Shown one piece after another: positions 690-32,824 of a stretch of 34,282 nucleotides of DNA. The notes below the pieces were generated by a model. The model saw only the letters and a list, made by a program, of their open reading frames with translations, was not told the origin of the DNA and did no database searches. This stretch comes from a virus. Its lineage: Duplodnaviria > Caudoviricetes. Location of the stretch: IMG/VR virus record IMGVR_UViG_3300032331_002510, positions 1-34,282 of that record, one strand, 5' to 3'. Every line of letters begins with the position of its first letter. Position 1 is the stretch's first letter. The translations under genes were made by a program, and so were the position numbers.

Positions 690-986
690 ATGAATAACGA
701 CAACATCCTTGGTCACATCGTTGACAAACTGGCCCAGGTCAAAGCACAGATCGCCGACCTGAAAATCGACGAACAACTTCTCCGGCAAGACCTGATCGAG
801 TCAGGCGAGTCGGTGATCGAAGGCGTCTACCACAGGGCCGCGATCAGCGAGTCTGAAGGCAAAGTCACCGTCGACTGGAAAGCAATTGCAATGAAGTTTG
901 CGCCCAGTCGGCAATTGATCAAAGCCCACACCAGCCAAGGTGAGAGCTACACCACTGTCCGTATGTCTGCAAGGAAGTCAGTATGA
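690..986 (+). CDS. Hypothetical phage protein (N-terminal coiled coil)
   Basis: GGAG at 680-683 precedes ATG 690 (MNNDNILGHIVDKL...). The stop overlaps the next start (ATGA). Confidence 0.7.
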   Translation: MNNDNILGHIVDKLAQVKAQIADLKIDEQLLRQDLIESGESVIEGVYHRAAISESEGKVTVDWKAIAMKFAPSRQLIKAHTSQGESYTTVRMSARKSV

Positions 987-1519
987 AAAATCTAAACGAC
1001 GCCCTCTTGTTAGCCCTCAAGGCTCACAAGGGTCAAAGACGCAAGGGCACTGCGATCCCCTACATCGCACACCCCTTGGCGGTCACCGCCATTGCCCTGG
1101 AGTACGGTGCCGACGACGAACAGGCCGTTGCAGCAATGCTTCACGACGTGATTGAAGACGGCGGCATGCACTACGCTACTGTGATCAACGGTTACTTCGG
1201 CGACCGGGTTTTCAACATCGTGTCTGCACTGACTAACGTCGGGAAAGGCACTTGGCGTGAAAACAAAGTCGAGTACCTAGGCCGCTTGCGTGATGCAAGC
1301 GACGACGTGCTCCTGGTCGCTGGCGCTGACAAGCTGCACAACGCCCGTTCAATCCTGGCCGACGTACAGGCCCTGGGTGACGCGGCATTCAACAAATTCA
1401 AGGCAGGCAAAGACGACGTGCTCTGGTACTACGTCAGCCTGGCTGGAATATTCACTGTCCGTGACGCGCCCATGGCGTCGGACTTCAACGATATCGTTCA
1501 ACAACTAGGAGAGCTTTAA
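983..1519 (+). CDS. HD-domain small alarmone hydrolase (Mesh1/SpoT hydrolase-like)
   Basis: Motifs AHKGQRRKG-x-PYIAHP, AAMLHDVIED and ADKLHNARS match the RelA/SpoT HD hydrolase domain; no synthetase domain is attached. Confidence 0.9.
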   Translation: MKNLNDALLLALKAHKGQRRKGTAIPYIAHPLAVTAIALEYGADDEQAVAAMLHDVIEDGGMHYATVINGYFGDRVFNIVSALTNVGKGTWRENKVEYLGRLRDASDDVLLVAGADKLHNARSILADVQALGDAAFNKFKAGKDDVLWYYVSLAGIFTVRDAPMASDFNDIVQQLGEL

Positions 1520-7215: not shown

Positions 7216-7417
7216 AGTTAACCAAAGGCGACGCGTGCATGTGCATCAGCATCGCCTTCTCAATCATATCCTTTGACATCGCCAGCTCTGCCGGGTCAAT
7301 CTCCAAAACAAAGCGCACGTCCTTGGCCAACAAAACAACCTTCTTGCCCTCGAACAGCGCCTCAAGCACGTCCAACGTGAGCGCCAGGCCAAACGTCGTC
7401 ACCGGAACACCGCCCAC
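7214..7417 (-). CDS. Hypothetical protein
   Basis: ORF coupled downstream of the Cro-like gene; start codon uncertain. Confidence 0.5.
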   Translation of the reverse strand: MGGVPVTTFGLALTLDVLEALFEGKKVVLLAKDVRFVLEIDPAELAMSKDMIEKAMLMHMHASPLVN

Positions 7418-7602
7418 TCTACGTCTGGCCTCATCTGCTCTGCGCTAATCTGCACACCCATCGACTTGGCCAGCATCAGCAGGAGCGGCACCCGCTCCAG
7501 GGGAATGCGCTTCCAGTTGGACACCGCCTGGCTACGAATTCCCAGGTGCTGGCTTACCCAGACGGGTCCGCCTAGCATTTTGATGATGTCTTGAGTGGTC
7601 AT
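7399..7602 (-). CDS. Cro/YdaS-like HTH transcriptional regulator
   Basis: MTTQDIIKMLGG...HLGIRSQAVSNWKRIP.ER...EQMRPD is the typical Cro/YdaS pattern. Confidence 0.85.
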   Translation of the reverse strand: MTTQDIIKMLGGPVWVSQHLGIRSQAVSNWKRIPLERVPLLLMLAKSMGVQISAEQMRPDVEWAVFR

Positions 7603-7609
7603 GGTGGGC

Positions 7610-7690
7610 GATGATAGCAGGGATTTCATAGTACGCCACAGCCCGCTAAAACATAGCGCTTGCACGCCAATCGAAAGCTGTGCTATCATC
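7610..7690. promoter_or_regulatory. Divergent promoter pair with identical extended -10 (TGCTATCATC)
   Basis: Rightward: TTGCAC (7660-7665), 18 bp, then TATCAT (7684-7689) with an upstream TG. Leftward: TGCTATCATC (reverse complement of 7610-7619), with TATCAT 8 nt before the Cro ATG. Confidence 0.6.
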
Positions 7691-7726
7691 CGCTCCGCCC
7701 CTAAACCAGTAACAAAGGAAACCAGT

Positions 7727-7960
7727 ATGGCAAAGCCAACCACACCAGCAGAAAAGGCCAAGATCAGAGCATTCATGGCCAACCTCAGAGACCAAAAGCG
7801 CGTACCTGAGCAGCGCGAATTCCCCCAGATCGGGGCCTTTTGCAGCGTCAAAGAGTACGTCGAGCAGTATTTCATAGCCAACAAGCCATGCGGTTACCCG
7901 TCTAGCTGCCGCTATGTCGAAAACTATTTCAACCTTAGCACCGATCCCGTAACCCTGTAA
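7727..7960 (+). CDS. Hypothetical protein
   Basis: AAGGAA SD precedes ATG 7727 (MAKPTTPAEK...). Confidence 0.65.
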   Translation: MAKPTTPAEKAKIRAFMANLRDQKRVPEQREFPQIGAFCSVKEYVEQYFIANKPCGYPSSCRYVENYFNLSTDPVTL

Positions 7961-15829: not shown

Positions 15830-16106
15830 GTCAACTCACGCAGACATCCGCTCTGCCTTGCGAGAAGAGCCTGATGGCTTGACTGCCTTCCAGGTAGCCC
15901 AGGCCACTGGCCTTGCAGCAGACTGTGTGCGCCAGGCGCTGCCCAACATGCCCGACGTGTACATCGACCGATGGGAGCAGCCAGCCAAGACCAAAGGCTA
16001 CAAAGGCAAAACCTGGCGGGCTGTGTACATCGCTGTGGTCGTACCACCAAACACAGCAAAGCCTAGTCTTTCTCCTCGCCCTCGACGGTCAAACCTTGAC
16101 GAATGA
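15822..16106 (+). CDS. Winged-HTH-like protein
   Basis: IRSALREEPDGLTAFQVAQATGL...VRQAL. Its 3' end overlaps the 3' end of the giant gene by 44 nt. Confidence 0.6.
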   Translation: MRKSTHADIRSALREEPDGLTAFQVAQATGLAADCVRQALPNMPDVYIDRWEQPAKTKGYKGKTWRAVYIAVVVPPNTAKPSLSPRPRRSNLDE

Positions 16107-19100
16107 ACTGCTTTTTCTGGCGCAGCTTTTCGCGCTCTGCCTCGCCTGTTGTGGGGCTGATGGCACCTTTGTTTTCCAAGCGTTGAGACTGTTTGATCTG
16201 CGCTTCCAATTCCCGGATAAGGGCTTTCGTTTGCGCCTTCTGAATCTTTTCTGAAGTGTCCAGGTCGATTGGCCTGGCCTTGATGCCGACAGTTTGCAAG
16301 GCCGCGTAGCCCGGTGTGATTGGCAGGCCGTCTTTGCCAATACCCGTGTACTCGGCCAGGCCCACGTTGACTGACTGGCCGGTTACATTTGCGATTACAT
16401 TCATGGCCCGCTCAAAGTGCGTGTTGCCCACAGCGATGGCCGGTGTCATTTGTTTCCACATCCAAGCCGCACGCTTTTGCGCAGCCTCGGCACTGGTATC
16501 CGTTTTCTTGACGATGTCCTGGCCACGGAACGTGTCCTTGTTAAAAAGCATGGCCGAGGCAATGGTCAAGATGGGGCTATTTGGCGTCAAAGGCGCAAGC
16601 ATAGGGATACCCCCTGCGTTATTGTGCGCGTCGAACAGATCGCCACCGGGGAAGATACGGCTGACATCAAGGAACACGGGCAAATTGGTCAGGTCGTCCA
16701 TGCCCAGGCGGATCGTCTTTTCTGTGCCTAGGGCCAGGCTTGCGCCCTTCATCCATTCGGGCAAGTTCTTGCGCTCTTGCTGCTCCAAGTCTTTAGACCG
16801 CTGGCGGAATTCTGGGTCGGTCATGTATCGACGAATGATGGTCCACCAGTCTTCGTCATCACCACCGCCAAGGCTTGCAGCAATGGCGTACATGGCCGCG
16901 TTTGCCACGTAAAGCGCAACGGCAGGGGCAGCATAGCGGACAGGGTGTTCAAGGGCTGTATTGACCAAGGCTGGCACGACCTTGTACGTATAGGCAAAGA
17001 ACGGCAAACCGACCGGCATGTCACGAATCACACGCGCGCCCTTGGGCATGTCGTCGTAAGAGAACATGTACTTCAGCGCGTAGTCAACCGAGTCGTCTAC
17101 GCTCAGGCCGTTGTTGCGCGCATCCCGGTAAATCACGTATCGGAAAAATTCGTCCTCGGCACCGTATGCTTTGCCCAGGGGTTTGCGCAGCCACAAAGAC
17201 AGGCCGTTCCAGACCATCTCGACAGCGCGCTTGCTTTTGCTCTCGGCCATCTGGGCCAAGACGCGCAGCTCTTCGGGCATGGCCTCGGTCAGCTCAGCGC
17301 GGTTAAACGTGCCGCCGAACAGACCGGCCTCTTTGGCTTCGTCCACCATTGCGTCGCCCTTGACCAGGTCCTTGATGGAGCCGATGTATTTGTGCGCGTC
17401 CCAGTAAGACACGCCAGCAAAGTGGGCCATCGTGATGTTCGACAGTACGTTGTTTGCGTGGGCCACTGGGTTGAGGACAGTCTTGCCCTCTTTCCACATC
17501 GACAAACCTTTCATGTAAATCTTGGTCAAGTCGTTTTGCATGTCGCTATCAAACGCAACCAACTGGTCCAAGATTTCACTTGGCACCCATTTACCGCCCA
17601 GCTTGCCGTAGCGCTTAGCAAACGTGTCTTCGACGTTGGTCGCGGGCACCTGAACATAGCCAGGCTGCTCTGTCTTGCTTGCGTAGGTTGCGGCCAGGTT
17701 TTCATACAAGCGGCCCAGTGCGATGTCGCGCTGGCTCTTGTTGTATCCCATGACAAAGCGGAACATGGCGTCGCGAATCTCGCCCATGTCGTCGCGCTCC
17801 GTCCTGGTGTAGTCGCGCCACACTGTGATCTCGGTATCAACCGCTGGATCGTAGGTAGCGTCGCGCACTGCCCAGCCCTCGGCTTCCCAGTCTGCCAGAT
17901 CAGCGACCGGTACAGTCTCAAACATGCCGCGCGCCTTGAGGCTGCTGCCCTTAATACCTTGCATGGTTTGTTTGCGGCCAAGCAATCCCTTGACTGCTTT
18001 CATCCAAGCCTTGGCTTCGTCGCCCAGTTTCTGTTCGTAAAAACGCGGCAGGTACTTGCCGTCCCAGCGGCCAGCGGCGTCTTTGGACAGCATGCCCAGG
18101 CGGACCAGCTCTGCCGATTGCTCAGACATGATGTCCTGCATAGACGCGGCAATCTCCAGCACTCGCTTGGGTGGCGTGGCACCGCGCTTGAGTTCGCCCT
18201 CGATCACATCGCTGATCATCTGGCGCTCTTGCTCGGGCAGGTCCTTCATGGACTTGGCTACATCGACCGTCAGGTTCTGTGCCTTGTCGACTTCCATGCG
18301 CATCTTGCGCATCGCACGGGACAGCTCTGGGCTGACCGGTTTCATGCCGACCACGTCCAGGACCGCGTTGGCCACGTCCGCTGCGTAACGGTATGCCTTG
18401 GCACCGGCACCGAAACGGAAGCGGCCCAGCTCATCACGGCTGAGCAACCAGCCCTCGGTCTCTTTACCAACCGGCTGGCGCTTGGCGAATGCGATAGGCG
18501 CGCCGGTGATGTCTGCCTCTTGGCCAAACGTTACGTTCTTGGCCAAGACCAGGGGACCGACCTGGATCACTTCGTCTGCGGCAAGCACAGGGCGCATGGT
18601 GTCGCGGTCGTAAAAGTAGCTGTGGCGGAACGGGTCCATGCCGACCTGGGTCCAGGCTGGGTCGTTTAGCGCAGCGTCGGCGCGGGCCTTGGCGTCAGCC
18701 TTGCTGATCGGTGACCACTTGCCAAGCATGGTGGCAATGGTGCCTTTGGCCGTGCCAGTAGCAATCCTTGCGGCCATCTTTTGGTTCATGCCAAAAGTGA
18801 CGTCGGTCAGCGCAGCCACGGACTCATACCCCACCACCGGGCCAGCGTCGTATGCGGCCTGGACTTCGCGGTTGGTTGACTTGGGCGTATGCACACTGAC
18901 CACCCAGGTGTCGTGCTCTTGGTAGGACGGAATGTCCAATCGGAGCTGCGCCCAGTCGCCCTTGATCAGGGTCATGGTTGGCACGCCATACTTGGCTGCC
19001 TTCTCGGCGCTTTGGCCACGGCCATTGGCCAGGGCGTATCGAGCGTCTTTGGGCGTCGTAACGGCGGGCACGGCGGCGTAGGGGTACACCGGTCGCGATT

Positions 19101-21219
19101 CGTCAACCATGCGGTTGTACTCATCCCTGGTAATATTGCCTGCTTGCAGGTCGGCCACGGCCTGCTGAAGCTCAGGCGTGCGCTTGAATCGCTCGGCGCT
19201 TGTACCTTCTACGCGACTGGCCGCTGCATTCTTTTGCTCGGCCCTGCTTGGCGGTTCGACTTTGCGGGCAACAATACCCAGGCCAACATCGCGCTCAGTT
19301 GCGTAACGGACTGGATTTTCCAAGGGGTACATGTACTTGACCTGGCCAGGGGCAATGTCAAACTTGGAGCCTTTAGGCACCAGGGTTTGATCGCGGTACT
19401 GGTCGAATTGCTTTTGGGTAGATACCCGGATCGGTTCACCGATGGTCACCGCGCCAATTGCTTTGGCCGGGCCGTCACCTGTGCGCACAATTGACACCCG
19501 TTTTCCGACGTATGGCCGGAGCGAGTCAGACGCCCTAGTCTCAAGTGTCTTTTCCCCGTCAATTATTTTGTCAGCGTACCGGTTTTCTCCGTCCTGGTTG
19601 ACGTTGATACCAGTGCTTTCAGATATAATAGGGGCGGAGGTTCCAATGACATTCGATTTCAAATCCCTTCCGCCCGGCACCATGTTCTTTGACTGGAACG
19701 GTGTACCCGTAACTGTCTCTGCTGGCTGGCGTTCTGCCACAGCCTGGGGACCAGAGCCTTCGCCGCGCAACCCTTCCGATGTACGCGAGAAAGGCGACCC
19801 GGTAGACAAAGCTGAATTCGAGCGCGTGTTCACCGCTTTTGCTGCTCTGCCTTCATACGCGCCTAAGCCTTCGGAGTAAATTTTTCTCTGAAGCTCGACC
19901 ATCTTGGTTTTGACTGGGCTGTCTGGCATCTCGCGTTCAAACGCGTAAATCTCATGGCCCAGGTGCTTGGCAGCCAGCATCTCGGGCGTGCTGATTTGAA
20001 TCTCAGCAACAGTGCCGTCAGGCAGTACGACGTTGGTCAGCACATCCTGGTAACCAGTGGGCAGGGGTTTGCCTTCTAAAGCCGCGCCTTTGTCGTTGAC
20101 CAGGTCAATCGACAATCGGTTTTTAATGCGGTCAAAGTCATACACTTTGCCGATTTTATTAATGGCGTCTTGGGCTTCTTCAAGCGTGTTGACAACAATC
20201 GTGCCGCGCAACAAGTCTTTGATTTCGTCGGTTTTCCAAAATGTTTCAGTGGCTAATTTGGTAACAGCTCGGTACGGCTTTTTGATGCCGGGCTTTTTGG
20301 CGTAACCATTAACTTCTTCACCAATGCGATCCAGGGTCTTATCAAATTCTGGCTTGTTACGTTTTGCCCCGTCGTACAACGGTTGAAGCAATTTCTCGCC
20401 AAGGGCGCGTTCTTTCTTTGTCAGGGGATCAGGCGGCTCGGCCTTCTTGTACTTGGCAATCGCGGCCTCGGCTGCTGCAATGGTCTCAGGCTTGAGCACG
20501 TCCTCCGGGTCCAGCCCTTGCGCACGGCTGAAGCGGATGTCCGGGTTGTTCGCGGCAAACGCGCCGGTGTTGCCGATGGCCGATTTTATTTGGGAGGGGT
20601 TGAACGCATTCCAAGTAAGATTTCCGCCTTCATACGCGCCTATCCCATCAAAGCCGGTAGTTTTTAAGAAATCAATAAAGGTGTCTGAAGCTAAAAATTC
20701 AAACGCGTTGCCTTCGTAATCCGGCTCAAAACCGATGTCACTTGGTTCAAACGTAGTTGCGTTCTCATCATTGATTCGGTTTAGCGCTTCTTCAACTGTT
20801 ACGTCATCCGACAGGTCTATGTCTTCGGGAATTAAAATTGGGTTTTCGATACGAAGAAAAACCGGCATAACCCTGGGGCTAGGACCCCCGGATTTCTCCG
20901 TGTACCCGTTAGCTGTGTATGGATTTTCTCCAAACCAAGAACCAAAATCCATGGTATCAAAGGTAGAAAAATCTTCAGCAGTGTCGGTTCCGTGGTAAAC
21001 CACCAGCGGCTTGCCCTGGCTGTCAACTACCTTGCTGTCACCGAACCATTGCTTAAACGCAGGGGTCTCGGTTTGCCTGGCGCTCAGCGCCACAGGCGCG
21101 CTAGGCAGCAGGTGTTCCAGGCCACCGCTGGCCAGGTAGGCTTTGAACGCGGCTTGGCCCTTGATAACCCGCTCTTTGCCGTCACGGTCGGTGAACCTGT
21201 ACGTGCAATCTTTCGCCAT
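16063..21219 (-). CDS. Large polyvalent virion/ejection protein (ART-like + RelA/SpoT-type synthetase + ASCH + unknown domain + helical C-terminal region)
   Basis: ART-PolyVal-like region (FKQWFGDSK...YHGT...GFDGI...QIKS) at about 20530-21075. Synthetase-like region (IKKPYRAVTK, DLLRGTI, GYQDVLTN, EIQIST, HEIY) at about 19900-20300. ASCH region (YADKIIDGEKTLETR) at about 19270-19610. Confidence 0.85.
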   Translation of the reverse strand: MAKDCTYRFTDRDGKERVIKGQAAFKAYLASGGLEHLLPSAPVALSARQTETPAFKQWFGDSKVVDSQGKPLVVYHGTDTAEDFSTFDTMDFGSWFGENPYTANGYTEKSGGPSPRVMPVFLRIENPILIPEDIDLSDDVTVEEALNRINDENATTFEPSDIGFEPDYEGNAFEFLASDTFIDFLKTTGFDGIGAYEGGNLTWNAFNPSQIKSAIGNTGAFAANNPDIRFSRAQGLDPEDVLKPETIAAAEAAIAKYKKAEPPDPLTKKERALGEKLLQPLYDGAKRNKPEFDKTLDRIGEEVNGYAKKPGIKKPYRAVTKLATETFWKTDEIKDLLRGTIVVNTLEEAQDAINKIGKVYDFDRIKNRLSIDLVNDKGAALEGKPLPTGYQDVLTNVVLPDGTVAEIQISTPEMLAAKHLGHEIYAFEREMPDSPVKTKMVELQRKIYSEGLGAYEGRAAKAVNTRSNSALSTGSPFSRTSEGLRGEGSGPQAVAERQPAETVTGTPFQSKNMVPGGRDLKSNVIGTSAPIISESTGINVNQDGENRYADKIIDGEKTLETRASDSLRPYVGKRVSIVRTGDGPAKAIGAVTIGEPIRVSTQKQFDQYRDQTLVPKGSKFDIAPGQVKYMYPLENPVRYATERDVGLGIVARKVEPPSRAEQKNAAASRVEGTSAERFKRTPELQQAVADLQAGNITRDEYNRMVDESRPVYPYAAVPAVTTPKDARYALANGRGQSAEKAAKYGVPTMTLIKGDWAQLRLDIPSYQEHDTWVVSVHTPKSTNREVQAAYDAGPVVGYESVAALTDVTFGMNQKMAARIATGTAKGTIATMLGKWSPISKADAKARADAALNDPAWTQVGMDPFRHSYFYDRDTMRPVLAADEVIQVGPLVLAKNVTFGQEADITGAPIAFAKRQPVGKETEGWLLSRDELGRFRFGAGAKAYRYAADVANAVLDVVGMKPVSPELSRAMRKMRMEVDKAQNLTVDVAKSMKDLPEQERQMISDVIEGELKRGATPPKRVLEIAASMQDIMSEQSAELVRLGMLSKDAAGRWDGKYLPRFYEQKLGDEAKAWMKAVKGLLGRKQTMQGIKGSSLKARGMFETVPVADLADWEAEGWAVRDATYDPAVDTEITVWRDYTRTERDDMGEIRDAMFRFVMGYNKSQRDIALGRLYENLAATYASKTEQPGYVQVPATNVEDTFAKRYGKLGGKWVPSEILDQLVAFDSDMQNDLTKIYMKGLSMWKEGKTVLNPVAHANNVLSNITMAHFAGVSYWDAHKYIGSIKDLVKGDAMVDEAKEAGLFGGTFNRAELTEAMPEELRVLAQMAESKSKRAVEMVWNGLSLWLRKPLGKAYGAEDEFFRYVIYRDARNNGLSVDDSVDYALKYMFSYDDMPKGARVIRDMPVGLPFFAYTYKVVPALVNTALEHPVRYAAPAVALYVANAAMYAIAASLGGGDDEDWWTIIRRYMTDPEFRQRSKDLEQQERKNLPEWMKGASLALGTEKTIRLGMDDLTNLPVFLDVSRIFPGGDLFDAHNNAGGIPMLAPLTPNSPILTIASAMLFNKDTFRGQDIVKKTDTSAEAAQKRAAWMWKQMTPAIAVGNTHFERAMNVIANVTGQSVNVGLAEYTGIGKDGLPITPGYAALQTVGIKARPIDLDTSEKIQKAQTKALIRELEAQIKQSQRLENKGAISPTTGEAEREKLRQKKQFIRQGLTVEGEEKD
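19646..19879 (+). CDS. Candidate nested antisense gene (77 aa), possible immunity protein
   Basis: TATAAT at 19624-19629, GGAGG at 19636-19640 and ATG at 19646. It occupies the linker after the synthetase domain. Confidence 0.5.
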   Translation: MTFDFKSLPPGTMFFDWNGVPVTVSAGWRSATAWGPEPSPRNPSDVREKGDPVDKAEFERVFTAFAALPSYAPKPSE

Positions 21220-21222
21220 GGC

Positions 21223-21714
21223 TTAACCGCCTAGTTCTTGGTCGATCAAGAGCATGCCAGCCTTGTCTTGGTCGACAAGGTCAATGCGCGCCAGCAGGTC
21301 GCCGTACTCGCCGACACTGGTGCGCTGGATTTCAAGGAATTGCAAAAGGAATTGTTGGACCACCGGATCGTCTGATGTCTCGCTGTACCACTCCTTGTAG
21401 TTGTTGTACAACTCCAGCTCGGTCTCATACCCAGTCTCGATGGCATCGCTGAGGGTCTCGATGGTGTCATTCATCGCCTCAATCATGGGCACCTTGGCCA
21501 CCGTACCTACGTCGTTCTGAAATTCAACGTGGCGCTGGTAATGCTCCAGCTCGTCCGCGCTTTCCTTGAGAAAGAATTTGGTTGCACCAAAGTACCCAAT
21601 TCGCTGGAGCTGATTGGCGATGTGCTTGTACAGGTTGGATGCGTACAGCTCGGAATGGACCGCTTCGTCCAGCATCTTTTTGCAGTCGGCGGAAATGATC
21701 ATTTTGGGTAGCAT
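21223..21714 (-). CDS. Ferritin (FtnA-like four-helix bundle)
   Basis: ELYASNLY, G..KFF..ES.DELEH, YETE and D....QFL..F...Q follow non-heme ferritin spacing. TAAGGA SD precedes ATG 21714. Confidence 0.85.
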   Translation of the reverse strand: MLPKMIISADCKKMLDEAVHSELYASNLYKHIANQLQRIGYFGATKFFLKESADELEHYQRHVEFQNDVGTVAKVPMIEAMNDTIETLSDAIETGYETELELYNNYKEWYSETSDDPVVQQFLLQFLEIQRTSVGEYGDLLARIDLVDQDKAGMLLIDQELGG

Positions 21715-21725
21715 GGCTTGGGTCC

Positions 21726-24700
21726 TTATTTGCAATTGATCTTAACCTTGTCCGCATCCTCAAGCTGGATCAAGATGTCGTTAAAATTTTCCTGGACATA
21801 TTTTATTTGCGCGCCGTCCGGGCGTGCAGTGAATGCAGCCTCGGCGCGTGTCTTGGCCAGGCCGCGTTTGGCCAGGTCTTCAAATATTTTCTTTAGCGGC
21901 TGTTTGACTACTTGGGTTGCATTGAACCGGTCGGTTCTTGCGCCAATGAAGTCTTCCCGTTCTTTTCCTTGGAACGGAACAGCGCCCCCAGTCGGCTTAC
22001 CGCTCGGTCCAGTTGCTCCGGTGTTTGGCTGGCCAGCCACTTGTCGTGCTCGTCCTGGTCCAGATTCGGCTGCTGTGCGTAATTGTTGTCCATCGAAACC
22101 TTCTTTCTGTAGTAGCGATTCTGCCGCACCTGCGTAGTCTTGGCTAGTCACCCGGAGTTTTACGCCCAAGTTTTTGTAGAGTTCTTGCTCTGGATACCAG
22201 ATCAAAGCCTGGAGCGCTGCCGGTGGCACGCGCTTGCCCGTCTGCTCCTCAACCATGACGACCATCTGGCGGACCACGTCACGGATAAGCTGGCGCTCAC
22301 CGCCGCTGCCGGGGGCGTCGGTTGGCTTGTCAGCCGACTTGATGATCGAATCGGCTGCGCCAATTAGGGATGTCTTAATCCGGGTGCCTGAGTCAAACGC
22401 AGCGCGCTCTTTTATGAATTGGCGGTTATGCAGGCTGCTTACCTGGCGGGCCAGGGCGATGGCCCCTTCGTCCGTCTCCATCGCAGCCTGGACGGCAGCC
22501 GGGTCAAACTGGGCAGCGTAAACACCCCTCTCGGCTGGGCCGGTTTCGGCCAGAGCGGCGCGCAGCTTGGCCACTTGCTTGGGAAACAGCACCGAGTCAA
22601 ACGCTGGCAAAGTCCCAGTCAGTCGACCAAGCGTGCGCATGAACCACATGTCCATTGTCACCGGCTCAAAGTTCCCGGCCAGGTTGCTGTAGAAACCAAA
22701 TCCGATCTTTGGCCCAAACACTGCTGACCCCAGCAAGTTTTCGTCCATCGACTCGCCGCCAATTTTGAAGCCGGACATCTCCAGTTCGCGTTTGGTAAAT
22801 GCGGTTTGCAAGAACCGGCCCATGTCATCCGCGCCAAACTCGGCCAACAACTTGTTTGCCAGGGAGAAGTTTTTGGCCATTGCGGGCGCTGACTTGCCGG
22901 TGCCAACTTCGGGAAACTTGCCTGTTTTGCGGAAAGCCTCGTACTGGGCAGACGCATAGCGCAGGTTGTCCTCGACATTCATCGTCTGTGACGAAATAGC
23001 AACAGAGATCAAAAATGCGTTGCGTGCATTTGGGTCGGAGTTCAGCTCGGGGTATTTGACCGCCATGATTCGTAGCGTTTTTGCAACAGTCTCGTCGTAC
23101 CATTCGACCGCGTTGCCTGCGCTGCGGATTGCCGCCACGGCCTCAGAAGCCATTAGTTTGGCCAGGGTGGTGCGGTCGCCAGCCTTCTTGATATTCAAAA
23201 CCGGCAGGCCAGAGGCCATACGTCTATTGGTCAACCATTGCACAACCTCGGGGATACCGCCGACTTTGGGCGTTTTGAACGTGTTGTCCCCGGTCTTGCC
23301 GGTCATCAGGGGCAGCATGCTGGCGTTGTATTCGGCAGCGGACATCTTGAGCTTGTCGGCCACGTCTTGGTACACGCCAGTGTCTTTCACCTCCGGCGCT
23401 GGTGGGCCAACCACTTCTTTTTTGCTAAAACGTATTTCGCTGCCGATGCGCTCCATCTCGGTGTTGGCCGCTTCCACTTGGCCCGCTGGAATCTCCAGGG
23501 TGCCCATGCGCATGCGCGAACCGGGGATGTTGCCGGTGTCGACCTGGCTGGCCTCGCGTGTCAGCAGGCCCTTCTTGAGGGTGGTAGGCGCGGCCTCGGC
23601 TGGCAGGGCTGCGGCCTGGGGCTGGCCGATCTGCTTGACAGGCACGGCCTTGTGTTTCTGGCCCAGCAGCACCACGGCTGATTGGCCATTACCAAACGGC
23701 GCGATGTAACCGTCAAACCCTGCATTGATGACCGCTGACTCGAACGCGTTTGCGTCGGCCTGCGGTTTGATCAGTCGAGTCTGTGGGTCGTAGATGTTGT
23801 CCAGCTTGGTTTCGTGTGCGTATCCGCCGACCCCGGATTCGGGGCGAATACCTGCGCCTTGGTCAACATAGAAGTAGACGCGGTTTTTAAGTCGAGGATC
23901 AGTGCTACTGTCCAGGCGAGTACGTTCTGCCCCTTTGAGTCCTTGTCCATAGTAGGCTCCACTTAGCGTCTGACGGGGAGTCGTTGAGTAGTGTCTGCCG
24001 ACAACGGAGATTGCGCCTGCTCTTGCGGTGCCGTAGCTTGGGGTCGGACCGCCCCCATCTTCGCTAAAGCCTGGTCGATCCTGCGCTGTTGGTCCTGGTA
24101 GGTTTTCACTTCCTGCTGCGGTAACGGTCGGTGCATTGATCTCTCCTTGCCGCAAGCTGGCGGCGGGTGCTGATTCAAACTGCTGAAGCGTTCCTTGGCG
24201 GTATGCGATCAGCGCTTCGCGTGCCACCATCTTAGCCTTGGCCAGGTCACGCACGTACTGATCAACTTTAGCAGATTCGGTTTCCCCTTGTGTGGGTTTA
24301 CCGCGCAAAGTGGACATCAGGTTGTCGATGACGCTTACCCACTTTTGCACAAAGCCTTTGAATCCGCCCGGATCAGCCTGGGCTACATCCGCCCAGAATG
24401 CTTTATCTGTGGCGCGGTTGCCCATGAAGTCGGCGGTCATCTCTGATCGCAAAAGCGGCGATTGCAGTAACTCTTGGATGCGACTTTCTTTTATGTCGGG
24501 CGTGGAGTCAAGAGCGGCCAGCTCTGCGGCATGCAGGAAGTTGGTGACGTAGGCGCGCTTACCCTCTTCGGTCATGTCGTCGAAGATGCTGTCGATCTGG
24601 GCCGTGAATTTCTGAGCTGACGTGTCGGTCAAACCAGCTTGCCGCTCGGTAAACGCGATCTGCTCAATCGTGTGCTTTAGCTCATGCAAAGACACCTTGC

Positions 24701-27314
24701 TGATGTTGGTCACCACGTTGGCTGTGTTGACAAAGGCAGTGCCGCCAACGGCCACACCCTGGACAGAACCAGGGCTGGTGTCGTGGAACGCGATAACGCG
24801 TGTACCAAACTGGCTGCCCAGCAGATTGGCTATGGTGCCGACAGCTCTGGTTTCGGCGTCAGGTGCAGGGTTTAACTTTGCAGGGATGGCCTGGCCATTG
24901 TCGACGGCCCAACGGTCCAGAGATCGTTGCGCATCTGCTCGTACTGTTTCGTTGTCAAGGACTGGCTGATTACCGACATCCCGCACTGGCGCTGTTCCGA
25001 GGGTTTGTTCTGTTCCAGGGAGTGGGGGGATTGAAACAGCCGGGGTACTTGGCGCAACTCCAGATTTGGCTGTGAATGTAATGGTGCCATCTTCGTTCTC
25101 CGTTTGATCAAACTGACTGGCCAATGCGCGTCTGTCGCGGATCGGCATTGCGCCCAGCTCTTCGGGCGTGAGTGTGCGGGTCTCGGGCGCAAGCGGGGTA
25201 ATCGAGACCGTGCTCGGTGTGGCTGTCTGCTGGGGTGCTGCACGTTGAGTAAACGCGCCAGCCTCATCCTGACGCGCGGTCAGCTCGATTGCTGCACTGC
25301 GGCGAGAGATAGGGGCGACGGTCTCATCGCCAGTGATCGCCTGGAGCTGGTCGTCGGACAGGTTAGTGACCGGGGTGCCCTGAATGCTGCGCGGCCTGGG
25401 CGCGTTGATGCGCAGCTTGTCTAGGCCAAACTGCTGTTCGGTTTCTGTGCTGATCTCCGGGGCCGGTTCAACGGCGGTTTGAGTACCAAGATCAAACCCA
25501 GGCAACGATCCTGCGTCAAACCCTGGCCCAGCGCGGCCTACAGAAGGGGTCATTTCGCCCACCTGGAAGGTTGCCCTAGGGGGTAGGGGCGTGATCGCGT
25601 TCTCGGGCACCAGAAGCTCGTTTAACGAACCGGACAGGTTATCTGCCGCTGCGGCTGCGGCGTCTGCCGTGGTTGATTGCTGAAGGCTAGTCTGGTCCTG
25701 CTGGACTTTGGCTGTCTGGTAGGGCTTGATGAGCGCGGCATCGTAGGACTGCACGTCCAGGGCGCGGCGGGCAAAGGCGTCGATTGCTGCCGGGTCAAAC
25801 TGGCCACCGGCTACGTCACCGGCAAATGCGTCGGCAAAGGCGCGCTCAGGGCTTACTTCCAGCAGCTTGCGCGCGATAGGCGCGGCTACGCGGCCAGCGC
25901 CACCCATAACCAAAGTCTGAGCGGTTGTTTGATAGAACGTGTCGCCAACGGCTTTGAGGTAATCGCCAAGGGTCGCGTTGGGGGTTAGGCCAAACGGTGT
26001 CCACTTGTCCGTGCCAAATTGCATGGCAGTCGTAACTTGCTCGGATAAATTTTCTTTAACCAAGTACCGGGCAAACACCGGCATGATCTCGTCGGCGGGT
26101 ACGCCTTTGACCAAGTCTTTGAAGCCTTTGATAAAAGGAGCCGGTAAGCTGGCGCGTTCGCCGACCCATTCAGCAACACCCATAAACGCCGCACGCGGAA
26201 GCGCTTCGCCCATGGTTTGGCCAGCGGCTTTACCGTTGCCGTATTCCTCAGCAAAGGTTTGCGCAACGGCGGCGGTAACCCCCAGGCCAGGGTTTACCAA
26301 GTACGGCGCAAAGTTGTTGATCGCGCCAGCGACGCCGGTTTCAATAAAGTTCAACGCGGCGTTAGGGTTTTCACCAATCGCTTCTAGTTTTGCTTTAGCT
26401 GCTTTTTGCTGAACGGCGTTGCCACTGGACAGCTTTGCGCCCACATCTGCCAATTGCGTGGAGCCTGCCAAATCTCCTGTCGATTCAAGCGTGTCGCCGA
26501 TAAGTTGCCAAGCGCCGGACGCAGCAGATTGGAACGTCCCGGCTACTTTGCCACCGACCGCTTTGCCCGCGCCCACCAGTTGCTCAAAACCCGTGGGCTG
26601 TATTGTGCGCGCCCTAATTAAACCTTCGGTCTCTTCCAGCGCCATTCTGCCTTCAGGGCGTTTGTACTCATCTTTGGCGGCAAAATCAAACGTCGAAGGT
26701 TTGGCTTCGCTAAAGCGTTGGGGTGTTGCCCCGGTTGCGGCGTCTTGCGCTGCAAGAGCATCAGCAGATTCGATGTCTCGGCCCTGGGCGATGTACGCGT
26801 CCCGGCGGACTTCTCGGCGGGTATCAAAACCGCGCAAGGAGGGAAGCTGTTGGGGATTGGCTTCGCGGTATTGCTTGTCAATGGTTTGGAATACCTGGCC
26901 CTCAAAACCTTTGTTTTGCACCAGGGCCTGACGTTCTTTGGGAGTCGCCGCGTCGTACTGTTGTTTTAGGGCCGTGAATTTTTCTTCCGAAACTGGGGCA
27001 CCGCGACGGTCGATAAGTGGGGCTTGCGGTGGCGGCGCTACACCCTCCAGCACACTGGTGCGCTTAGGCGTAGCAGCGGCCATGATGGCCGCGCCAAAGT
27101 CATCCCCGCTTGGGCTGTACTCTGTTGAAACTTCAGGCGCGGCTGCGGCCTGGCGCACGGGGGCCGCGCGCGGCTGCTGGATGTCTACCTTGAACGGGGT
27201 GACGTCGCGCCGCCCTTGGGGCTTAGCCGCTTCAGACTCGACGGCATAGCTTGACCACCACTCGTCCTTCGACTCGTCAGCCGGAGCGTAAGTTTCCCAC
27301 CATTCTTTTGCCAT
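21726..27314 (-). CDS. Large polyvalent virion/ejection protein (zincin metallopeptidase + ART-like + HhH DNA-glycosylase-like)
   Basis: HELKH at 24672-24686 with a downstream EMTAD. RHYS...RVYFY...GFDGY at about 23650-24010. WY...S.Q...N, GPKIG.FY.NL.G, VTMDMWFMR and QALIW at about 22170-23120. Confidence 0.8.
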   Translation of the reverse strand: MAKEWWETYAPADESKDEWWSSYAVESEAAKPQGRRDVTPFKVDIQQPRAAPVRQAAAAPEVSTEYSPSGDDFGAAIMAAATPKRTSVLEGVAPPPQAPLIDRRGAPVSEEKFTALKQQYDAATPKERQALVQNKGFEGQVFQTIDKQYREANPQQLPSLRGFDTRREVRRDAYIAQGRDIESADALAAQDAATGATPQRFSEAKPSTFDFAAKDEYKRPEGRMALEETEGLIRARTIQPTGFEQLVGAGKAVGGKVAGTFQSAASGAWQLIGDTLESTGDLAGSTQLADVGAKLSSGNAVQQKAAKAKLEAIGENPNAALNFIETGVAGAINNFAPYLVNPGLGVTAAVAQTFAEEYGNGKAAGQTMGEALPRAAFMGVAEWVGERASLPAPFIKGFKDLVKGVPADEIMPVFARYLVKENLSEQVTTAMQFGTDKWTPFGLTPNATLGDYLKAVGDTFYQTTAQTLVMGGAGRVAAPIARKLLEVSPERAFADAFAGDVAGGQFDPAAIDAFARRALDVQSYDAALIKPYQTAKVQQDQTSLQQSTTADAAAAAADNLSGSLNELLVPENAITPLPPRATFQVGEMTPSVGRAGPGFDAGSLPGFDLGTQTAVEPAPEISTETEQQFGLDKLRINAPRPRSIQGTPVTNLSDDQLQAITGDETVAPISRRSAAIELTARQDEAGAFTQRAAPQQTATPSTVSITPLAPETRTLTPEELGAMPIRDRRALASQFDQTENEDGTITFTAKSGVAPSTPAVSIPPLPGTEQTLGTAPVRDVGNQPVLDNETVRADAQRSLDRWAVDNGQAIPAKLNPAPDAETRAVGTIANLLGSQFGTRVIAFHDTSPGSVQGVAVGGTAFVNTANVVTNISKVSLHELKHTIEQIAFTERQAGLTDTSAQKFTAQIDSIFDDMTEEGKRAYVTNFLHAAELAALDSTPDIKESRIQELLQSPLLRSEMTADFMGNRATDKAFWADVAQADPGGFKGFVQKWVSVIDNLMSTLRGKPTQGETESAKVDQYVRDLAKAKMVAREALIAYRQGTLQQFESAPAASLRQGEINAPTVTAAGSENLPGPTAQDRPGFSEDGGGPTPSYGTARAGAISVVGRHYSTTPRQTLSGAYYGQGLKGAERTRLDSSTDPRLKNRVYFYVDQGAGIRPESGVGGYAHETKLDNIYDPQTRLIKPQADANAFESAVINAGFDGYIAPFGNGQSAVVLLGQKHKAVPVKQIGQPQAAALPAEAAPTTLKKGLLTREASQVDTGNIPGSRMRMGTLEIPAGQVEAANTEMERIGSEIRFSKKEVVGPPAPEVKDTGVYQDVADKLKMSAAEYNASMLPLMTGKTGDNTFKTPKVGGIPEVVQWLTNRRMASGLPVLNIKKAGDRTTLAKLMASEAVAAIRSAGNAVEWYDETVAKTLRIMAVKYPELNSDPNARNAFLISVAISSQTMNVEDNLRYASAQYEAFRKTGKFPEVGTGKSAPAMAKNFSLANKLLAEFGADDMGRFLQTAFTKRELEMSGFKIGGESMDENLLGSAVFGPKIGFGFYSNLAGNFEPVTMDMWFMRTLGRLTGTLPAFDSVLFPKQVAKLRAALAETGPAERGVYAAQFDPAAVQAAMETDEGAIALARQVSSLHNRQFIKERAAFDSGTRIKTSLIGAADSIIKSADKPTDAPGSGGERQLIRDVVRQMVVMVEEQTGKRVPPAALQALIWYPEQELYKNLGVKLRVTSQDYAGAAESLLQKEGFDGQQLRTAAESGPGRARQVAGQPNTGATGPSGKPTGGAVPFQGKEREDFIGARTDRFNATQVVKQPLKKIFEDLAKRGLAKTRAEAAFTARPDGAQIKYVQENFNDILIQLEDADKVKINCK
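21908..22093 (-). CDS. Candidate nested out-of-frame gene (61 aa)
   Basis: AGAAGG SD 5 nt before ATG 22093. MDNNYAQQPNLDQDEHDKWLASQTPEQLDRAVSRLGALF... lies over a Gly/Pro-rich linker. Confidence 0.35.
   Translation of the reverse strand: MDNNYAQQPNLDQDEHDKWLASQTPEQLDRAVSRLGALFRSKEKNGKTSLAQEPTGSMQPK
23963..24136 (-). CDS. Candidate nested out-of-frame gene (57 aa)
   Basis: AAGGAG SD 6 nt before ATG 24136. MHRPLPQQEVKTYQDQQRRIDQALAKMG... lies over a Gly/Pro-rich linker. Confidence 0.4.
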   Translation of the reverse strand: MHRPLPQQEVKTYQDQQRRIDQALAKMGAVRPQATAPQEQAQSPLSADTTQRLPVRR

Positions 27315-30476: not shown

Positions 30477-30917
30477 TTAAATTCCTCTTACGTATGAAAG
30501 GGTAACGGTCTCCCTGGTAAAACCAAGGTGTTTAAAAAAGCGAATCAAACGTGGGTCTACGTCTGGTTCCAAACTAAGCACAGCCACTTTGATCGCCGAC
30601 CGACCTTTGACCCATTCAGCGAATTCGCGTATCAGTTTGAGACCTGCACCCTTGACCAGGGAGTAGTACAAAAGCACTGAGCACTGCATCTTGTCGTACC
30701 AAAAACTTTTCTGCACGCAAGCACCGAACACTGCAACCACTTTGCCATCTTCGTCTTCTGCAACCCAGGCGAAGTGCGCTGGGTTGATACAAGCCTGGGC
30801 CATGCGCGCCATCGCCTCGCGGTCGATGTTGACCGGCAAAGGGTTGTTTGACACGGAGATCACCGCTATCTCTACGATAGCTGGAATGTCCTGGAATTTT
30901 GCTTTTCTGTAGATCAT
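30477..30917 (-). CDS. GNAT-family acetyltransferase-like protein
   Basis: MIYRKAKFQDIPAI...WVAE.E.GKVV...G.G.KLI...FFKHLGF. Confidence 0.75.
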   Translation of the reverse strand: MIYRKAKFQDIPAIVEIAVISVSNNPLPVNIDREAMARMAQACINPAHFAWVAEDEDGKVVAVFGACVQKSFWYDKMQCSVLLYYSLVKGAGLKLIREFAEWVKGRSAIKVAVLSLEPDVDPRLIRFFKHLGFTRETVTLSYVRGI

Positions 30918-32824
30918 GGGACGATGGGCGGAATGGTGGATTTGTAAAACGTATTGGCCCAACTAATCTGGGCGTTTGCGTAGTCAACCAATTTAGTGAT
31001 TGCGCCAGTTTGTGCAGTCGAGTCTAAAGTCGCGTCAGCCATGATTGCGTTTACACCGGCCATTGTCGTATTGCTTATTTGCGCCGCAAACGCAGCCGGA
31101 ATCCTTTGCTGGTCCCCTGCGAGTTGCAGGCCAAGCCTCGTAGCCTGAGCGACGTTATCAGCGGTTTGCACAGCGGTTTGCTGGCTGCGATCAAGCACAG
31201 CTTGAGCACTAGCAAAATTCTGTCTTGCCGTTTCCAAAGACGCTTGAGAAGCGAGGCTCTTGTCAGTGAGGGCCACTTGGTTAGCGCGATCAAGAGCGGA
31301 TTGAGCGCTGGCAAAAGTCTGCTGTGCAGTTTGCAAAGTCGCTTGCTGGGCGCGGTCAAGTACGGCTTGATCTTTGGCAAAATTCTGTCTTGCAGTTTCC
31401 AAGGCCGCTGTAGCGGTGATGCTCTTATCAGATATAGACACCTGAGTAGCACGGTCAAGTTCGGCTTGGGTTTTTGCAAAAGTCTGCTGCGCGGTTTGCA
31501 AAGCCGTTTGTTGAGTACGATCAAGTTTGGCTTGCTCAGTAGCAAAATCTTCTTTTGCTTTTTCTAAAGCCGCCGTAGCGGTAATGCTCTTGTCAGTTAG
31601 AGACGTTTGCTGTGCGCGATCTAGTGCGGCTTGTGCGCTGGCAAATGTCTGTTGACCTGTTTGCAAACTGGCAGTCGATTCCTGGCGTGACTTTTCCAGG
31701 GCTTGTGCAGCGGTGATGCTTTTGTCCGCCAACATGATCTGGGTCGCGCGGTCTTTATCTGCTTGCGTAGCCTGAGACGCCTGGGCTGCTGTTGCCAAGT
31801 CTGTTTGCTGGGTGCGGTCCAGCGCGCTTTGGCCAGCGGTAAATTCTTGGCGCGCTTTCTCCAAAGCCGATGTAGCGGTGATGCTTTTGTCCGCCAACAT
31901 GATCTGGGTTGCGCGGTCCTTCTCGCTTTGACTTGCTTGGAAAGCCTGCACTGAATTCGCCAGGTCGGTCTGTTGATTGCGGTCCAGCGCGCTCTGGCCA
32001 GCAGTAAATTCTTGGCGTGCTTTTTCGAGAGCTTGCGTGGCGGTGATGCTTTTGTCCGCCAACATGATCTGGGTTGCGCGGTCTTTCTCGCTCTGGCTTG
32101 CTTGGAAAGCCTGCACTGAATTCGCCAGGTCGGTCTGTTGATTGCGGTCCAGCGCGCTCTGGCCAGCAACAAAAGTTTGCTGACTGGTTTGGAGAGCTGT
32201 TTGCTGCGCCCGGTCCAGCGCGCTTTGGCCAGCAGCAAAAGTTTGCTGACCGGTTTGGAGAGCTGTTTGTTGTTCGCGGTTAAGCGAATTCTGGGCGGCG
32301 TCGAAATTCTGCTGGGCCTTGGCCAGGTTGGACGTGGCTTCCACGCTCTTGTCCGTAAGGGCTGTCTGCTGCGCGCGATCCAGTTGGGCCTGGGCAGCCT
32401 GGAAATTCTGAGTGACCTGTGTTTGGCCAGCGGCAAATGCCTGCTGATTGCCCAACAGGCCAAATTGGTTTTCCTCTTTTACATTACCCAAGCCAACCTG
32501 GTTTTGGTTGTTCAAGTTTGTGAGGGCACGGTTGGAGAACGTATTCGCGTCAGCAGTGGCAATTGGGATGGCGCGGTCCAGCATGGCCGCGACACCGGCA
32601 CCCTGGTTGATGGAGCTGTTGACCAGGCCGCGCGCGGCCATGCCCTGGGTCGCCTGAGTGCGGGCCTGCTGCATCAGTGGGTTGTCCTGGGCCATGATGC
32701 CCTGGAGCTGGCCAGACACTGTCTCTGTCGGCTTGTCCACCTGGGACGTTACAGCCTGGAAAGTTTTGGCCTGGTTCGCCGGGGCGTTAGCGTTGCCTAC
32801 GTCGAAAGGGTTTGTTGTAGCCAT
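30914..32824 (-). CDS. Ala/Gln-rich repeat coiled-coil virion protein
   Basis: Built from 22- and 33-aa LDR/KDR modules; GGAG SD. Confidence 0.75.
   Translation of the reverse strand: MATTNPFDVGNANAPANQAKTFQAVTSQVDKPTETVSGQLQGIMAQDNPLMQQARTQATQGMAARGLVNSSINQGAGVAAMLDRAIPIATADANTFSNRALTNLNNQNQVGLGNVKEENQFGLLGNQQAFAAGQTQVTQNFQAAQAQLDRAQQTALTDKSVEATSNLAKAQQNFDAAQNSLNREQQTALQTGQQTFAAGQSALDRAQQTALQTSQQTFVAGQSALDRNQQTDLANSVQAFQASQSEKDRATQIMLADKSITATQALEKARQEFTAGQSALDRNQQTDLANSVQAFQASQSEKDRATQIMLADKSITATSALEKARQEFTAGQSALDRTQQTDLATAAQASQATQADKDRATQIMLADKSITAAQALEKSRQESTASLQTGQQTFASAQAALDRAQQTSLTDKSITATAALEKAKEDFATEQAKLDRTQQTALQTAQQTFAKTQAELDRATQVSISDKSITATAALETARQNFAKDQAVLDRAQQATLQTAQQTFASAQSALDRANQVALTDKSLASQASLETARQNFASAQAVLDRSQQTAVQTADNVAQATRLGLQLAGDQQRIPAAFAAQISNTTMAGVNAIMADATLDSTAQTGAITKLVDYANAQISWANTFYKSTIPPIVP
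31170..32440. repeat. Intragenic tandem repeats (66/99/165 bp units)
   Basis: CGGTGATGCTTTTGTCCGCCAACATGATCTGGGT starts at 31711, 31876 and 32041, a 165-bp period. Confidence 0.85.

Follow-up and report, generated by a model that had tools for sequence, protein, structure and literature searches.

The closest described counterparts of the locus reported here are alarmone synthetases that work with a small immunity protein. In Pseudomonas aeruginosa PA14, the toxin Tas1 (Apk1) sits at the C terminus of a PAAR carrier, and its partner Tis1 is encoded by a separate adjacent gene (PDB 6OX6; PMC10083569); in the passages of PMC10083569 and PMC12226406 that treat them, tis1-like genes follow Apk enzymes and neutralize them. 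The MuF-Apk2/IapK/Aph1 system of temperate phages is described in parts of the same two sources as a virion-associated synthetase accompanied by its small cognate partner and, optionally, by an HD hydrolase, the toxin being terminal and apk2, iapK and aph1 being successive genes (PMC12226406, PMC10083569). RelA/SpoT domains are also found in phage polyvalent proteins (PMC5512222), which have the same multidomain, shuffled architecture as the protein discussed here; the RelA/SpoT passages of that paper name no immunity partner, and the words “antisense,” “opposite” and “linker” are absent from its main text. The stretch of DNA that we analyzed, referred to below as the window, is the 34,282-nucleotide Caudoviricetes record IMGVR_UViG_3300032331_002510 of IMG/VR. 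It contains a 77-codon open reading frame (ORF) lying antisense within the gene of a 1,718-residue protein, directly behind an alarmone-synthetase domain. We propose that this ORF is probably the cognate immunity gene of the synthetase domain, the two forming a portable cassette that uses both strands.

The antisense gene and the selection acting on it

The small gene occupies 19646 to 19879 on the plus strand, from the ATG at 19646 to the TAA at 19877 to 19879, and is predicted to encode an immunity protein. A Shine-Dalgarno sequence, GGAGG (19636 to 19640, plus strand), ends 5 nucleotides before the ATG, and a predicted promoter is marked by the −10 box TATAAT (19624 to 19629, plus strand), 16 nucleotides before the ATG and the sole copy of that hexamer in the window, both strands counted. 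These elements, the 5-nucleotide spacer and the nesting within the 1,718-residue gene are as given in the original prediction, and so are its two −35 candidates, TTGACG at 19598 and TTGATA at 19604. No −35 element stands at canonical spacing, and because none lies 16 to 18 nucleotides away a strict sigma-70 scan returned no plus-strand site at the box; over the same bases it returned one minus-strand site, which is the chance level (1 found, 3.1 expected). A longer reading from an ATG at 19442 (145 residues) was considered and rejected; the upstream extension ranges in length from 12 to 188 codons in the relatives, which makes 19646 the conserved start.

Read on the minus strand, the small gene and its signals (19624 to 19879) are a linker of the large protein (residues 447 to 532), and the 77 codons themselves overlie residues 447 to 525. 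The linker had been described as rich in Ser, Thr, Gly and Pro, and these residues do make up 42% of it, compared to 25% of the entire protein. It had also been placed between the synthetase and an ASCH domain; the synthetase side of that description holds, while the ASCH match is weak (E = 0.004, below the Pfam cut-off, with a match in 12 of 20 relatives). We then kept the protein sequence fixed and redrew the linker codons from the giant gene's own usage. The antisense frame stayed open in 2,423 of 20,000 such synonymous recodings (12%), so the length of the ORF is not significant in itself, as had been cautioned, but the ATG, the open frame, TATAAT and GGAGG occurred jointly in none of the 20,000.

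The coordinates show that the antisense and enclosing frames share their third codon positions. This is the arrangement most prone to shadow conservation, and selection was therefore scored only at sites silent (four-fold degenerate) in the enclosing frame, by comparing transversions that change the antisense residue with those that do not, across 21 distinct sequences. The ratio of changing to neutral transversions, given as pairwise counts with column bootstraps that do not represent independent events, was 0.10 (0.01 to 0.25) for the whole overlap and 0.05 (0.00 to 0.15) for its core, compared to 0.71 to 0.83 for the same frame in five control segments of the giant gene. Antisense stops were found in 0 of 1,361 codons in the core, compared to 2 to 3% elsewhere, and none of 1,505 other windows of 66 codons was free of them. 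Ratios of 0.1 or less were reached by 27 of these 1,505 windows, and the low values among those listed have very low depth or lie beside the overlap. Four other toxin groups (32 loci) gave 0.18 (0.05 to 0.38) in the overlap and 0.99 (0.69 to 1.30) in the toxin domain. The enclosing frame is likewise constrained within the overlap, at 0.30 to 0.34 (with wide intervals) in the close set and 0.24 in the other groups. Both overlapping proteins are thus under selection. The original prediction had pointed to a comparison of the two frames as informative, and this comparison reveals purifying selection that is specific to the embedded frame, the mark of an antisense-embedded coding gene, alongside constraint on the enclosing one. 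We regard it as virtually certain that the ORF is a real gene.

A sliding selection test along the 1,718-residue gene and a signal scan of the whole window found no second nested gene, and the ART domain of the same protein has no comparable antisense partner. Four RNA-labelled runs contain 5 to 11% of the sequence words, as unstranded contigs with patchy cover.

Linkage of the small gene to the synthetase

A search with the peptide returned 22 viral loci at 64 to 97% identity. At all 22 the ORF begins with ATG and reaches TAA after 70 to 77 codons, in the same phase and inside an opposite-strand frame of 790 to 2,063 codons. The synthetase domain alone, used as the query, recovered the same 22 contigs and one distant locus (L045), so the set is not biased by the peptide query. 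A TATAAT or TATACT box is present in every case: 15 loci have GGAGG with the box 16 nucleotides before the ATG (14 TATAAT and 1 TATACT), and 7 have TATACT only 7 nucleotides before the ATG and no GGAGG, a spacing that corresponds to the promoter geometry of leaderless messages. In L007, L008, L014, L017, L020, L021 and L022, 9 nucleotides (three enclosing codons) have been lost upstream of the ATG with the enclosing frame intact, apparently a switch from the Shine-Dalgarno-led form to the leaderless one. The pair of residues that encodes the −10 box in the enclosing protein, II or SI, is kept in 77 of 78 close enclosing proteins. Loss of the ATG or its signals, or gain of stops, on which the original prediction could have foundered, is not what these homologues show: the ATG, the −10 box and the frame are kept. 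A domain scan of 20 of the 22 enclosing proteins, with two near-duplicates omitted, matched RelA_SpoT in 18 and ASCH in 12. The synthetase lies at very different places in these proteins (near residues 130, 293, 599 and, in P0095, 2100), and at every position the linker is invariably what follows it.

More distant relatives show the same association. A search of representative proteins gave 15 matches at roughly 30 to 50% identity, including single-domain and tandem-repeat proteins. Three new viral loci were fetched with an alignment of the small protein, and in all three the gene is antisense, in the same phase and directly behind the synthetase, within unrelated enclosing proteins of 495, 1,047 and 1,382 residues. 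An alignment of six synthetases from such loci, a query that favours its own clade and includes its seeds among the results, then found 75 viral loci, 74 of them scorable. An in-phase antisense ATG ORF of 58 to 90 residues lies directly behind the domain in 68 of the 74. A −10 box with either Shine-Dalgarno or leaderless spacing was found at 64, compared to 0 of 761 control windows, under a rule fixed after inspection of the data and with controls taken from the same frame of the same enclosing genes. When the toxins are clustered at 60% identity, signal-bearing loci occur in 21 of the 27 clusters. An extended −10 (TG), absent from the copy in the window, is seen at 43 of the 64 loci and would account for the poor −35. 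One profile matches 45 of the 68 antisense peptides, and of the remaining 23, 18 form a second aligned group whose comparison with the first gives a probability of 94.5%, a level reached by none of 60 shuffles.

The other six of the 74 loci depart from this layout. In L098 and L099 the copy is free-standing and convergent, has TAAAAT and GGAGG as its signals, and lies 290 nucleotides beyond the end of a portal-fused synthetase gene. In L162, L163 and L165 a terminal toxin is followed by a same-strand gene of 87 to 92 residues, and L168 is a marginal match. Fusion of the synthetase to a portal protein is seen in both L098 (1003 to 5999) and L162 (745 to 3788), each with a small same-strand ORF of 87 to 93 residues after it. 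At some nested loci the enclosing frame stops only 52 to 150 codons past the domain.

Among 25 loci from bacterial genome bins, 6 pass the rule for nested genes, 1 fails it but has a homologue, 11 show a terminal toxin and a small same-strand gene, and 7 are cut, are unclear or have neither. The one same-strand gene of this set that was checked is a Tis1 family member (L178, PF24154, E = 5.5e-24). Across the 100 loci from L094 to L193, all 78 matches to the antisense family lie on the strand opposite to the synthetase, and none of the 100 carries both immunity families, as judged with profiles built from these loci. At L185, L186, L190 and L191, from Bacteroidota bins, the synthetase frame extends 128 to 134 codons past the domain and gives same-strand Tis1-like profile matches, and these are possibly toxin and immunity fused in a single chain. 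Photobacterium sp. DA100 (L194, 1720 to 3564) has two stand-alone synthetase ORFs in tandem and no detected member of either immunity family. No member of the antisense family accompanies the synthetase matches in Bordetella phage PHB04, Sinorhizobium phage phiM12, or the Photobacterium and Azospirillum replicons. In PHB04, gp033 (69 residues, same strand, after a GYRD-type synthetase) was considered as a homologue and rejected; it shares only a C-terminal G-x-x-I-S-E with the small protein, and 25 of 2,000 shuffles score as high.

A metagenome scan with the tandem-repeat homologue added three loci. L197 (273 to 1034) and L198 (3671 to 4294) hold family members without a synthetase within contigs of 1.3 and 5.9 kb, and in these two, as in P0101, P0104, P0107, P0108, P0110 and P0114, the family occurs as tandem repeats or as C-terminal domains of larger proteins. 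Such copies without a synthetase may be orphan immunity genes kept by bacteria. In the third, L199 (1179 to 2233), two antisense copies of the small gene come one after the other behind a synthetase gene in two frames.

These relatives bear on three parts of the original prediction. That antitoxin and domain move as one cassette agrees with the tie between ORF and synthetase across unrelated proteins. That an internal toxin must nest its antitoxin is a generalization that rests on essentially one phylogenetic contrast, and L098 and L099, whose stand-alone homologues near a synthetase are of the kind that had been suggested as a check, manage with a free convergent gene instead. As to overprinting, the gene is indeed nested in the linker, but the order of events was probably the reverse of that proposed: de novo overprinting implies no homologues outside the overlap, and L098, L099, L197 and L198 have free-standing ones. 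Since free-standing copies exist, the linker is likely to be a product of read-through. The linker would then be the newcomer, formed when the toxin frame was read through an older convergent immunity gene, and the nested loci with short tails are the intermediates expected from such read-through.

Function of the small protein and alternative explanations

The synthetase domain (19885 to 20412, minus strand; residues ~270 to 445) is Tas1-like and of the GYxD type. Its Pfam RelA_SpoT match (residues 312 to 421, E = 1e-4) is under the cut-off, and its sole significant relative in the PDB is Tas1 (6OX6_A, E = 2e-5). The motifs K..R..K, D..R.T, GY, ExQ and H, which we take to have catalytic roles, are intact, align with those of Tas1 and are invariant among relatives. 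A quick tree of 60 rows, thinned from 86 and with 3 short rows dropped, is split with SH-aLRT support of 100 into a 45-row, mostly GYxD group that includes all antisense cases and a 15-row group of Tas1-like GxN enzymes. Synthetases of the Tas1 clade have an ordinary same-strand Tis1 gene behind them instead of an antisense gene. The GYxD synthetases are most likely an uncharacterized clade of phage alarmone synthetases, predicted to be toxins.

Structure models of the small protein reached a predicted local distance difference test score (pLDDT) of 75 with close homologues and 88.8 when distant ones were added, and predict a small beta-sheet and a C-terminal helix. Tis1, which like the small protein has 76 to 77 residues, is the top fold match of the pLDDT 88.8 model, ranking first both in Foldseek among 350,542 chains (6OX6_B, probability 0.57, next 0.11) and in VIA among 48,161; VIA placed it third for the pLDDT 75 model (Z = 3.9, root mean square deviation [rmsd] 3.3, 64 residues aligned). 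The small protein itself has no match in a PDB sequence search and no family in Pfam or PHROGs; its best hit in the ESM Atlas (0.83) is unnamed, and in BFVD only uncharacterized small phage proteins were found, none at E ≤ 0.001. Partner size and a place directly behind an Apk-like synthetase, found at 68 of the 74 loci, are of the Tis1/IapK type. The opposite-strand layout is unlike that type, in which the gene is on the same strand and downstream of a terminal toxin.

We suggest that the gene would be transcribed from its −10 box by the host sigma-70 polymerase, independently of the late transcription of the giant gene, and translated from the Shine-Dalgarno sequence or as a leaderless message. 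The product would occlude the synthetase active site in the manner of Tis1 and IapK, so that the cell making phage would survive the build-up of the giant virion protein. After injection into a new cell, the domain would meet no opposition until fresh immunity protein was made from the phage's own promoter. A continuous segment of about 800 bases, open in the enclosing frame, contains the promoter, the immunity gene and the toxin, which would make the unit shufflable and allow its insertion at any position of a multidomain protein.

Several observations weigh against this proposal. The third synthetase motif reads GYQDVL in the window and mostly GYxD in the nested clade, without the GxN signature that characterizes (p)ppApp synthetases according to the relevant passages of PMC12226406 and that is seen in the Tis1-linked rows (GY[ST]GxN). 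The difference in layout tracks a single split in the tree and thus provides one contrast only. The constraint on the enclosing frame within the overlap leaves the proposed direction of origin tentative, and in one close enclosing protein, P0084, the two residues encoding the −10 box are missing. The fold matches to Tis1 are weak (Foldseek, E = 0.94 and TM 0.44; VIA, Z = 3.6 with the next at 3.5, rmsd 5.5 Å over 60 residues) and are equalled by unrelated small folds, of which several are SH3 domains, and the Foldseek rows listed for the pLDDT 75 model are PWWP domains, Tis1 not being among them. Searched against Pfam at E = 0.01, the small protein does not match PF24154 (Tis1/IapK), and hhalign gives Tis1 a probability below 2%, with a score that 3 of 60 shuffles reach. 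The small protein is therefore not, by sequence, a demonstrable member of the Tis1 family. What weight the fold scores have comes from the fact that Tis1 is the match that the immunity hypothesis predicts.

It is unlikely, if the least so of the alternatives, that the small protein is a true partner of the synthetase that does not neutralize it, such as a chaperone, a packaging adaptor, or a conditional regulator or sensor that gates the enzyme. Strict linkage and selection show partnership and not its sign, the small protein is without sequence similarity to Tis1, and the GYxD clade has yet to be characterized. However, the small protein's size, its position and its best fold match speak for Tis1/IapK, and copies without a nearby toxin are found in non-viral-looking contigs (L197 and L198), much as orphan immunity genes are known to occur without a nearby toxin.

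A second alternative, which we consider quite improbable, is that immunity serves mainly for superinfection exclusion: the protein would be made early from the sigma-70 promoter and would neutralize the injected toxin of sibling phages, with self-protection secondary or provided by the HD hydrolase. The host-type promoter signals fit this idea, the window encodes an HD hydrolase, as do 3 of 4 near-complete close relatives, and one distant locus (L169) may sit on an integrase contig (G006:C2). However, no tyrosine integrase was found in any of the same 4 relatives (serine integrases were not searched for), and the complete relative G002 has no hydrolase and keeps the nested gene. Together the integrase and hydrolase counts favour protection during lytic assembly, with the hydrolase as an optional backup. 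Superinfection exclusion departs from the cassette proposal only in the timing of protection, and an immunity function with either timing is very probable.

That the functional product is the antisense transcript, acting by RNA interference or polymerase collision on the toxin mRNA with the peptide incidental, has a very low probability. Transcription from the promoter would head straight into the coding sequence of the toxin, and a scan of the plus strand from 17734 to 21656 revealed no intrinsic terminator. However, selection acts on the amino acids of the antisense frame, the small protein is modeled as folding confidently, and free-standing protein homologues exist. Damping at the RNA level could be an added effect.

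Finally, the view that coinciding third positions and a conserved, tyrosine-poor linker keep open a mere shadow ORF, for which the 12% of open recodings and the constraint on the enclosing frame might speak, is largely refuted and scarcely credible, given scoring at enclosing-silent sites only (the same frame elsewhere giving 0.71 to 0.99), fixed-spacing signals at 64 of 74 loci and 0 of 761 controls, and homologues without any overlapping frame.

The preferred reading is thus that of a cognate immunity gene carried with its toxin. Whether such two-strand cassettes are a general design of phage polyvalent proteins, with many low-complexity linkers being hidden immunity genes read through, is more tentative, and we hold it somewhat less probable than its opposite. 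If it were true, each hidden gene would flag a neighbouring toxin domain, and the GYxD synthetases would form a new clade of toxins, paired with an immunity family of Tis1 fold that is likewise new and distinct in sequence.

Genome context and comparison with known systems

The window is a viral record that has a block of replication genes and, on the minus strand, a block of virion genes. The gene of the 1,718-residue protein (16063 to 21219, minus strand) encodes an ART-PolyVal domain (residues 66 to 221), the synthetase, the weak ASCH match (residues 546 to 593) and an L5 gp82-like region (residues 791 to 885). From this gene block and from a match of the gene at 30477 to 30962 to PHROG 308 (“internal virion protein”), we infer that the giant may be a virion ejection protein. 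Several conflict domains are combined in its single chain and shuffled among relatives, as defines a polyvalent protein; the relatives' chains contain ART-PolyVal, LPD38, ddrB-ParB, MuF_C and RelA/SpoT domains. Pfam detected no PAAR or MuF domain in the 1,718-residue protein, and its synthetase is internal, not terminal.

The HD-domain small alarmone hydrolase (983 to 1519, plus strand; Pfam HD_4, E = 2e-18) is unlinked to the cassette and is a possible second, enzymatic protection. Its nearest PDB entries are 7QOE and 7QOC, with a weak likeness to the (p)ppApp hydrolase 7SMG. A small Cro/CI-like helix-turn-helix gene (7399 to 7602, minus strand) is divergent from its neighbour at 7595 to 7960 (plus strand), despite the lack of a tyrosine integrase in the close relatives. 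The 1,718-residue protein and a second giant of 1,862 residues (21726 to 27314, minus strand) each have a single cysteine, at residues 5 and 1861, respectively, and thus at their facing ends; between the two genes lies a ferritin-like gene (21223 to 21735). Cultured phages gave no noteworthy DNA match to the window.

Long antisense-embedded protein genes are contested in prokaryotes. With selection specific to its frame, conserved signals and a function open to testing, across 21 of the 27 toxin clusters, the present family is an unusually strong case, and annotation pipelines would miss it where they drop nested genes. It offers an answer to how a toxin domain in mid-chain can be shuffled among polyvalent proteins without losing its protection, and it illustrates how the reverse strand of a gene already present might give rise to a linker. 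Convergent immunity genes on the strand opposite the toxin are familiar from the pore-forming colicins, and small genes wholly inside another from set1AB, which is antisense within pic, and from Rz1 in Rz. We know of none among these in which a protein immunity gene lies fully inside the ORF of its own toxin and moves with the domain. Searches of open-licence PubMed Central and bioRxiv text found no description of a toxin whose own ORF contains its immunity gene in antisense. Neighbourhoods of this kind could be listed in the supplementary datasets of PMC5512222 and PMC10083569. Alarmone synthetases of this kind are described in PMC12691689, as far as its relevant passages go, as hard to produce without an immunity partner, and the antisense partner is what a study of the uncharacterized phage clade needs.

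Compared to Tas1-Tis1, which provides the nearest solved relative of the synthetase and the top fold match of the small protein, the domain here is internal and of the GYxD type, and its partner is antisense within the same ORF and without detectable sequence similarity to Tis1. Compared to MuF-Apk2/IapK/Aph1, the window protein has no MuF match, the partner is nested in antisense and has signals of its own, and 18 kb separate the hydrolase from the cassette. By analogy with these systems, the cassette most likely resembles Tas1-Tis1 or Apk2-IapK in its working and differs from both in its arrangement.

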